Below are positions 63,046 through 64,000 of a stretch of DNA of 64,000 nt, piece by piece (positions within the stretch are counted from its first letter, which is position 1; each line of letters opens with the position of its first letter). Where the stretch lies: assembly GCA_026396715.1 (NCBI GenBank), contig JAPLWH010000006.1, positions 42,850 to 106,849 of the forward strand. Reading direction: 5' to 3'. The notes under the pieces are model-generated. The model did not search any database, was not told the DNA's origin, and saw only the letters and a program-made list of their open reading frames with translations. The DNA comes from Candidatus Kaiserbacteria bacterium. GTDB lineage: Bacteria > Patescibacteriota > Minisyncoccia > Phycocordibacterales > Phycocordibacteraceae. The translations under genes and the position numbers were made by a program.

Positions 63046-63130
63046 TTATTTGCGAGACGCGATGATGTCGGCGGCGACCCCATTAGAAACGCTCGCCGAC
63101 TCACGTTCTAACGGGGCGTGCGTTGTTCGG
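63046..63130 (-). pseudogene. Displaced duplicate of the fusA 3' end ([13 protein letters not shown]) interrupted by a 39-bp IR element
   Basis: CCG AAC AAC G ... GTC GCC GCC GAC ATC ATC GCG TCT CGC AAA TAA encodes the same residues as the fusA C-terminus with different codons. Confidence 0.8.
63078..63116. repeat. TTAGA/TCTAAC inverted-end element, 39 bp
   Basis: CCCCATTAGAAACG...CGTTCTAACGGGG. Confidence 0.8.
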
Positions 63131-63140
63131 TGTAGTTATC

Positions 63141-64000
63141 TTATTTGCGGCTTGCAATAATATCTGCTGCCACATTATTAGGAACTGTATCGTAATGGTC
63201 GAATTCCATCGTCATCGAACCGCGACCTTCAGTCATCGAGCGGAGTGTCGTGGTGTAGCCGAACATCTCGGAGAGCGGCACTTTGGCATTCACGACCTTG
63301 TTCATGCCGCGTTCCTCCATACCCTCAATCTGCGCACGCTTGCCCGAAAGATTTCCGGTAATGTCGCCCATGAATTTGTCCGGCACGACAACTTCGATAC
63401 GCATGACCGGTTCGAGGATGACCGGCTTCGCCCTCTGCGCCGCTTCCTTGAACGCCATCGATGCGGCGATCTTGAATGCTATTTCGGAGGAGTCCACGTC
63501 GTGGAACGATCCGTCGTAGAGGTCGATCGAGACATCGACCATCGGGAAGCCCGCGAGGAAACCGCGTGACATCGATTCGCGCATACCCTTCTCCACTGCT
63601 GGGATGTATTCCTGAGGGATCGCGCCGCCTTTGATGCTGTTGATGAATTCGAAGTGGTCCTCACGCGTAATGTTCTTGGAGATCTTAGCGCCCTCCTCGA
63701 TCGGCTCCATCTTCTTCATCTTGATCTTCACGTGGCCGTACTGACCGCGACCGCCGGTCTGCTTAATGTACTTCCCTTCTGCTTCAGCAGAACCAAGAAT
63801 CGTCTCGCGATACGCCACCTGCGGCTTCCCTACGTCTGCAACGACATTGAACTCGCGCTTCATACGGTCGACGAGAATTTCAAGATGCAGTTCACCCATG
63901 CCGGAAATAATAGTCTCGCCCGTCTCTTCGTCAGTCTTGATGCGGAAGGTTGGGTCTTCGTCCGCGAGCTTTCTGAGCGCGACGCCCATTTTCTCCTGGT
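63141..64000 (-). CDS. fusA: Elongation factor G (3' part; continues beyond the window)
   Basis: [43 protein letters not shown]. Confidence 0.98.

Follow-up and report, generated by a model that had tools for sequence, protein, structure and literature searches.

A doubled fusA end split by a hairpin element in a Kaiserbacteria genome, and its recurrence in related bacteria

Anatomy of the doubled fusA end

The window, the whole 64,000-nt stretch analysed here, is C7:42850-106849 of a 705-kb Candidatus Kaiserbacteria genome in 32 contigs, labelled G000 below. Within it, the fusA gene for EF-G ends in two copies of the same coding tail, the second of which is split by a hairpin element and is followed by a terminator and by tuf:

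63141-64000, minus strand: 3' part of fusA (EF-G, 715 aa); the gene runs past the window to C7:108137
63182-63141, minus strand: working, AT-shifted fusA tail, CCT AAT AAT GTG GCA GCA GAT ATT ATT GCA AGC CGC AAA TAA
63140-63131, minus strand: 10-nt spacer after the working stop, 7/10 identical to that of a second species, G202
63130-63122, minus strand: stub of the old tail, CCG AAC AAC (P-N-N), in frame with the old tail right of the hairpin
63121-63079: 43-nt insert (tag plus core) splitting the second tail copy
63116-63121, minus strand: 6-nt tag GCACGC of the hairpin element (family consensus about GCYTGC)
63079-63115, no strand assigned: 37-nt inverted-repeat core CCCGTTAGAA...TTCTAATGGG, belonging to a genome-wide hairpin family
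63078-63046, minus strand: remainder of the old host-like tail, GTC GCC...AAA TAA
62995-63036, minus strand: terminator-like hairpin 3' of the displaced tail, with a perfect 19-bp stem and a T run
61539-62738, minus strand: tuf (EF-Tu), the downstream neighbour, leaving a fusA-tuf gap of 402 nt

The order of AT-rich working tail, spacer, split second copy and terminator described in an earlier note on this DNA is exact in the sequence. The two tails encode the same peptide but differ at 13 of 42 nt and have identical sense codons at only 2 of 13 positions. G or C occupies the third codon position in 3/13 codons of the working tail and 11/13 of the displaced copy, against 0.72-0.75 in the fusA body. 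The displaced copy is written in host-like codons, as the note had it. Its description of the working tail as a foreign-looking synonymous replacement also holds: contigs of relatives align their tail to the displaced copy and not to the working one, and where relatives have a single fusA tail, that tail is GC-rich. The low GC3 of the working tail gives codon-matched P values, uncorrected for the choice of window, of 9e-4 (13 codons) and 1.5e-5 (16 codons). It is the lowest among 72 working tails compared, and the poorest of 589 windows of the fusA body has 4/13. By itself, the composition of the working tail is only moderately unusual. A genome scan found no other stop-anchored tail duplication in 778 long reading frames. 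The 10-nt spacer is likely to be post-stop DNA of the donor.

Contigs of five runs from two studies (X1, a possible source, X2, X3, X5 and X6) span all internal junctions with 0-1 differences, so the layout is not an assembly error; this is the support of assembled contigs rather than of raw reads. The X4 contig has a hole at the double-tail junctions, and X8 and X10 contain relatives rather than the G000 species.

Two neighbouring features are recorded here. A non-coding stretch upstream of tuf (62857-62941) keeps 85-96% identity across many relatives, in which identity over fusA is only about 80%; it gave no Rfam match at threshold, and a 14-mer within it resembles the hairpin loop at 13/14 bases. 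Beyond the window, rpsG and fusA are separated by an orphan ORF of 88 codons flanked by terminators (C7:108265-108531), so this gap carries cargo too.

The module is shared between species

The module of G000 is also carried by G202, where it lies behind a newer HicA-type cassette and where a displaced tail matches the working tail of G000 (63141-63182) at 41/42 nt. Over the whole module, 124 of 137 nt are identical, distributed as 41/42 in the tail, 7/10 in the spacer, 8/9 in the stub, 4/6 in the tag, 35/37 in the core and 29/33 in the right part. The fusA bodies of the two species, in contrast, share only 247 of 422 synonymous codons (59%), the match breaking at the Pro codon; the module has therefore moved between species. 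G013 and G134 are both nearer to G000 on the tree, and neither has a second tail in the DNA covered (495 nt for G013). Judged from the identity of the modules beside diverged bodies and from these two single-tailed relatives, the module is younger than the split between G000 and G202.

Displaced fusA tails and their cargo across the genus

Using two codon patterns (GTG codons included), we located the fusA tail in 181 of 222 genomes of the genus and read a displaced tail in the sequence of at least 25 of these 181, a lower bound given that the downstream DNA was read in only part of the genomes. The 25 are G000, G005, G009, G014, G015, G018, G022, G023, G030, G069, G080, G101, G118, G119, G121, G131, G156, G158, G176, G181, G192, G202, G203, G227 and G240. 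In G014 and G018 the displaced fragment lies on a different contig. We did not count G228 and G244, in each of which the second match is a long fusA frame on a different contig; both are probable mixed bins. On a tree of 72 fusA sequences, which was enriched for duplicates, had lost 5 loci at extraction and had a bootstrap that had not settled, the duplication label required 19 changes for 20 labelled rows, near the shuffled mean of 17.8. Shared ancestry of the duplications was rejected on this count, and the scatter of the label over the tree suggests that duplication events recur independently.

Complete gaps between fusA and tuf measure 238-5943 nt in 58 genomes. We compared 104 proteins from these gaps with Pfam. 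Of 138 ORFs predicted there, 104 were covered, as were the two HicAB ORFs, while short ORFs and fragments of fusA were for the most part omitted. The matches are to toxin-antitoxin parts (nucleotidyltransferase/HepT and HicA) and to RDD and surface domains, the recognisable cargo being toxin-antitoxin or membrane genes, and the majority of proteins are unmatched; none of the 104 belongs to an integrase, recombinase or transposase family, and none to a restriction-modification family. The duplicated part of fusA ranges from 6 to 67 codons, being 42 nt at G000 and up to about 200 nt in relatives, and the hairpin-free displaced tails are mostly far longer, reaching 67 codons. The tail repeats are identical in G080, G118 and G203, G022 has a possible 6-nt match near the joint, and in G121 the cargo ends right at the hairpin.

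A 58.5-kb fusA-tuf gap in G023 was considered as a full-length element and rejected, since it holds ribosomal-protein genes and groESL and so reflects a rearrangement; the breakpoint lies in the fusA tail (C9:27000-90000, L031-L034). In the same genome, a low-GC serine-recombinase island with methyltransferase-like genes adjoins tRNA-Ser. Several species have a nucleotidyltransferase/HepT toxin-antitoxin pair directly 3' of fusA (L147, L036, L043, L044), and the gap in G001 contains an internal fusA fragment of about 28 codons that lacks the terminal codons (L048:1095-1394).

The ends of rpsG and tuf served as controls. Those of rpsG are tandemly duplicated in 5 of 163 genomes, with no hairpin at the junction in any of the five. 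Those of tuf are duplicated in none of 147, the sole double lying on two contigs of a 1.5-Mb bin; in G000 itself, the 26 nt between tuf and rpsJ may leave no room for a duplication. End duplication is therefore not specific to EF-G, which the earlier note had taken as the target, and the hairpin-linked layout is found at gene starts as well (see below). The five rpsG duplications surround cargo (L130-L134), and G069 and G175 have related cargo with differing junction points.

A recurring module with an AT-shifted tail

Twelve loci drawn from genus genomes, GTDB and metagenome contigs (G000, G202, G009, G101, G131, G015, G192, L161, L165, L177, L180 and L182) have one anatomy: a diverged, AT-shifted synonymous tail, its stop, a spacer, a short stub of the old tail, the tag and hairpin, and the remainder of the old tail. 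The GTDB scan gave 29 matches, comprising 5 true modules (2 already in the set) and 24 that are not fusA modules, and the scan of metagenome contigs gave 6, of which 4 were false and 2 were true, the latter in a lineage whose EF-G peptide differs. G131, G192 and L182 were assigned to the hairpin class by hand after the automatic flag had missed them, while G121 was kept separate as a cargo case.

The hairpins of these modules occupy four codon positions and come from two hairpin families. In all 12 the old-frame stub is about 1-10 nt long; the tag lies 1-26 nt past the stop, and in 10 of the 12 the length of tag plus core is not a multiple of 3 (that of G015 was read by hand as 50). In G202, G009 and G101 the front tail has in turn been displaced by newer cargo. 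The module spacers are unlike the DNA that follows the displaced tail. Three modules use Ser codons of the TCN class in one copy and AGY in the other, and in G192 (AKRK) and L180 (VQDD) a lineage-specific peptide is common to both copies.

The AT shift is present in all 12 modules, with a difference in GC3 between tail and body of -0.33, compared with +0.01 in the 68 controls (sd 0.13). It persists when the modules are grouped by their 7 putative origins, kin not being independent (p = 2e-5). The shift is confined to the last 10-20 codons, GC3 being 0.37, then 0.53, and then at the control level. Mean GC3 upstream of hairpin modules is 0.38, and upstream of hairpin-free duplicates it is 0.63 in a set that included four pairs later reassigned to the hairpin class. 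Survivorship of diverged donors from within the genus was examined as a cause of the shift and is not sufficient, as it gives 0.64-0.68.

The hairpin family and its copies

The inverted-repeat arms occur 48 times exactly in the genome, where about 5 would be expected, and 33 are paired. A near-perfect (at least 5/6) flanking repeat of 6 bp accompanies 21 of the 32 family pairs that span at most 200 nt, and repeats of 4, 5, 7 or 8 bp give no signal; at the fusA copy no target-site duplication is seen (tag against right flank, 2/6). The hairpin stem is present in the RNA fold of the region, but the DNA fold of the 66-nt stretch does not exceed that of shuffled sequences in stability (z -0.77). 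Two assignments were rejected: a known RNA family, with 10 weak Rfam matches and none at gathering score, and an integron attC site, the order of the core being reversed on inspection of the sequence against the attC motif. A pattern for the second hairpin family (family B) matched in 7 of 222 genomes, with true hairpins only in G009 and G121 and Val-Val-Pro codons in the rest. Two contigs of a viral collection contain the hairpin core (L220, L221).

When the tagged hairpin was searched for without bias, 18 matches turned up, spread over 14 of the 222 genomes. Eight are in-frame copies of 36, 42 or 48 nt within genes (likely dnaE, tsaE and a tRNA-binding protein), with no replacement of an end, and eight lie at replaced gene ends (4 fusA tails, 3 gatB starts and 1 typA start); the remaining two were assigned to neither class. 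Of about four independent origins of end replacement in the set, two are at fusA, which is also a hot spot for cargo. The tag is turned towards the body of the gene at each replaced end. Our fusA patterns, which required the tail end after the hairpin, cannot detect the opposite orientation. Where the replaced end is a gene start, the order is the mirror image: old head, hairpin, tag, stub, new head. The names gatB, typA, dnaE, tsaE and tRNA-binding protein for hairpin-bearing genes are presumptive, assigned from the protein sequences.

The gatB start is doubled around a tagged hairpin in three species (L198, which is C18:2477-2512 of G000; L199; L208), and in G000 a short frame made up of the old head and the hairpin ends in a stop that overlaps the new ATG. 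In-frame insertions of 36-66 nt were seen in likely dnaE, tsaE, tRNA-binding protein and recJ genes (L195, L196, L202, L204, L209, L197, L201, L206; G000 C8:39752-39811). The window itself has a mirror-image case, at the start of what we take, from its protein sequence, to be rpmI (L35):

43649-43712, plus strand: old head, core (43658-43694), tag, stub and new ATG (43710) at the likely rpmI start

We regard this as a suggestive end replacement, weaker than the gatB and typA cases. The left arm of the same hairpin provides the stop codon of the likely infC upstream. The start of a gene that is likely rplV lies inside a 95-nt member of the family (57567-57661, minus strand), whose right arm encodes ...ISNGV... 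within an N-terminal extension of the protein.

One family member (C20:1528-1805, L214; flanking repeat 5/6) encloses a 95-aa GIY-YIG gene (minus strand, C20:1527-1811) and is a candidate autonomous element. It is of the untagged form of the family with the 6-bp duplication. The protein matches PDB 1zg2, UPF0213, with a weak, sub-threshold NCBIfam match. The genome also has four further small GIY-YIG genes, one Y1 HUH transposase-like gene, and matches above cut-off to comEC and dprA; the one tyrosine recombinase that it encodes resembles XerC/D and does not lie on the fusA contig. The SRM consensus has 3 matches elsewhere in the genome and none in the module.

A proposed hairpin-first model of gene-end replacement

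Any account starts from what is seen directly, namely the anatomy, its recurrence, the lack of integrases in the cargo examined and the sharing of the module between species. The reading that we favour, at a probability of roughly 0.5, is that the hairpin came first and that a foreign fusA end was then joined at a predicted nuclease cut beside it, with no integrase involved. The hairpin would have entered between the Asn and Val codons, shifting the frame so that EF-G ended in PNNARPVRT. A small Ssn-type GIY-YIG nuclease might then have cleaved ssDNA at a point a few bases 5' of the tag. DNA acquired by natural transformation would pair with the fusA body on one side only, the donor bringing an intact tail and stop that would be joined at the cut while the stub, hairpin and old tail stayed behind. 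The finished module passes between species, presumably by recombination, because both of its ends are fusA-like and usable as arms.

What suggests that the hairpin came first is that the junction tracks it across positions and two families, and that out-of-frame copies at gene ends carry replacements whereas in-frame copies do not. The tracking also speaks against the hairpin being an incidental later insertion, an option left by the earlier note. Further pointers are comEC and dprA in the host, the natural competence of Saccharibacteria (PMC10633639) and the reported cleavage of ssDNA by SsnA at a site that precedes an oriented hairpin by a few bases (PMC11893778); the junction geometry in the 12 modules is compatible with a predicted cut of this kind 5' of the hairpin. 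Counting against the model are the mismatch to the SRM consensus, the untagged GIY-YIG member, a DNA fold no more stable than that of shuffled sequences and an AT shift that donors of the genus do not reproduce. No hairpin was seen in a sole copy of the fusA tail in the genomes examined, and the hairpin-only intermediate would probably be harmful.

A more far-reaching form of this model, which we put forward as speculation and rather doubt, is a gene-less selfish cassette that consists of a recoded essential-gene end and a nuclease-cut hairpin, attaches at the termini of fusA, gatB, typA and rpmI, and spreads among species of Patescibacteria by natural transformation with the GIY-YIG enzyme making the joint. 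If true, this would be an integrase-free homing system, the same ends serving as docks for toxin-antitoxin and surface-protein cargo.

Alternative explanations

The main alternative is for cargo to have duplicated the fusA end first, with the hairpin arriving later and the duplicate then being trimmed back to the cut. We consider this possible, if somewhat unlikely. Hairpin-free displaced tails with cargo are common at fusA, so neutral targets exist and a harmful intermediate becomes unnecessary; the over-representation of fusA among replaced ends suits this order of events, as does the G121 cargo that stops right at the hairpin. It also comes near to the 'nearly deleted' idea of the earlier note, with cargo in place of the integrative element. 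However, it requires previous head duplications at gatB and typA, a long-stub intermediate is absent from the 12 modules and G121, and none of the five rpsG duplicates has a junction hairpin. Moreover, tails before hairpin-free duplicates mostly lack the AT shift (0.63, in the set with the four later-moved pairs, versus 0.38 in hairpin modules).

The fading of the AT shift within about 20 codons of the stop, together with the lineage-specific peptide often found in both copies (AKRK in G192, VQDD in L180), could instead mean that the host tail was duplicated locally and that its working copy then mutated fast, with an AT bias, near a recurrent cut site. This is improbable given that G000 and G202 differ least in the working tail (41/42) and most in the spacer (7/10) and tag (4/6), and that the stubs beside the presumed cut are well preserved. 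Nor would it account for the switches between TCN and AGY classes of Ser codon in three modules, or for spacers that differ from the DNA behind the displaced tail.

Integrase-encoding elements classically leave behind a synonymous replacement end and a displaced host end, and the working tail is foreign-looking and common to two species. The earlier note accordingly proposed the scar of a nearly deleted integrative element targeting EF-G, that is, a phage or island that had entered at the fusA end carrying a recoded tail. We find this very unlikely. There is no integrase, recombinase or transposase among the 104 cargo proteins, and the 58 complete gaps reach only 238-5943 nt. The one gap of 58 kb, where a full-length element between two tails had been envisaged, is the G023 rearrangement, and the serine recombinase of that genome sits beside tRNA-Ser; the sole tyrosine recombinase of G000 is XerC/D-like and on a different contig. 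The junctions themselves are variable, with no fixed crossover (6-67 codons duplicated, four hairpin positions), by which this explanation is largely refuted. Neither a full-length element nor a free attP was found in the genomes and viral collections searched: no viral stretch had the tail pattern, and a protein query gave one EF-G match, 53% identical.

Finally, an assembly chimera can be dismissed, for although the genome is metagenome-assembled and its support comes from contigs rather than raw reads, contigs from five runs in two studies are concordant and G202 has the module with substitutions of its own.

Significance

The doubled EF-G end is real and recurrent, a footprint of genome repair or gene capture that is apparently undescribed and is made from known parts. 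Patescibacteria have tiny genomes yet widely varying gene content, and the fusA locus points to an integrase-free route, in which the conserved end of an essential gene serves as anchor and a hairpin sets the other joint. If the nuclease step holds, Ssn-like enzymes would not only restrict incoming DNA but also build junctions and repair essential genes. The locus also makes testable how REP-like hairpins move and why they persist in essential genes. In practical terms, the last 10-20 codons of fusA and other marker genes in these genomes can be of foreign origin.

Comparison with known systems

Integrases insert elements into the 3' ends of genes with a replacement fragment, as SXT does at prfC and e14 at icd. 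In both those cases and ours an in-frame, synonymous new end restores the gene and the old end is shifted downstream; here, however, no integrase, fixed crossover or full-length element was found, and there are mirror cases at gene starts. Short palindromes in frame inside housekeeping genes are familiar from Rickettsia palindromic elements and REP/MITE sequences, and our family likewise has terminal inverted repeats in many copies, with 6-bp flanking repeats at many members. It differs in its heterogeneous interiors, in a fusA copy that lacks a target duplication and in the replaced terminus at out-of-frame gene-end copies.

The system of Ssn nucleases and NTS/SRM hairpin repeats also joins an oriented hairpin with a conserved 5' tag to a small single-domain GIY-YIG gene tied to the repeat; it has a link to natural transformation, and its cut is reported to fall a few bases before the hairpin, where our junctions lie (PMC11893778). 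The hairpin here fails the SRM consensus. In Neisseria the repeats seldom lie within genes, and cutting reduces integration (PMC11893778). Gene-end replacement does not appear in the available text of that paper, the main text of which does not mention CPR/Patescibacteria; its supplements may list CPR genomes (PMC11893778).

Long target duplication places cargo between long, variable direct repeats without a mobility gene, mostly in competent species (PMC2853133). A variable duplication of over 30 bp without a mobility gene is found at fusA (42 nt here), and long target duplication fits the hairpin-free cargo cases G030, G080, G118 and G203. As described, it was defined on restriction-modification genes with near-identical repeats (PMC2853133), whereas at fusA it is the coding end of an essential gene that is repeated, often with synonymous divergence, and the G000 locus has no cargo. 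Homology-facilitated illegitimate recombination (HFIR) shares with our model one homologous anchor and one illegitimate joint during transformation, but classical HFIR usually deletes host DNA of similar size (PMC3240628); here the host tail survives as a duplicate, the terminator is still present, and the joint follows the hairpin. Duplications made by transformation are a further close phenomenon (PMC3784515). In the literature searched, mostly outside subscription journals and supplements, we found no description of hairpin-linked gene-end replacement in Patescibacteria. The fusA footprint behaves like a blend of Ssn/SRM, long target duplication, HFIR and transformation-made duplications, departing from each of them in a defining respect.
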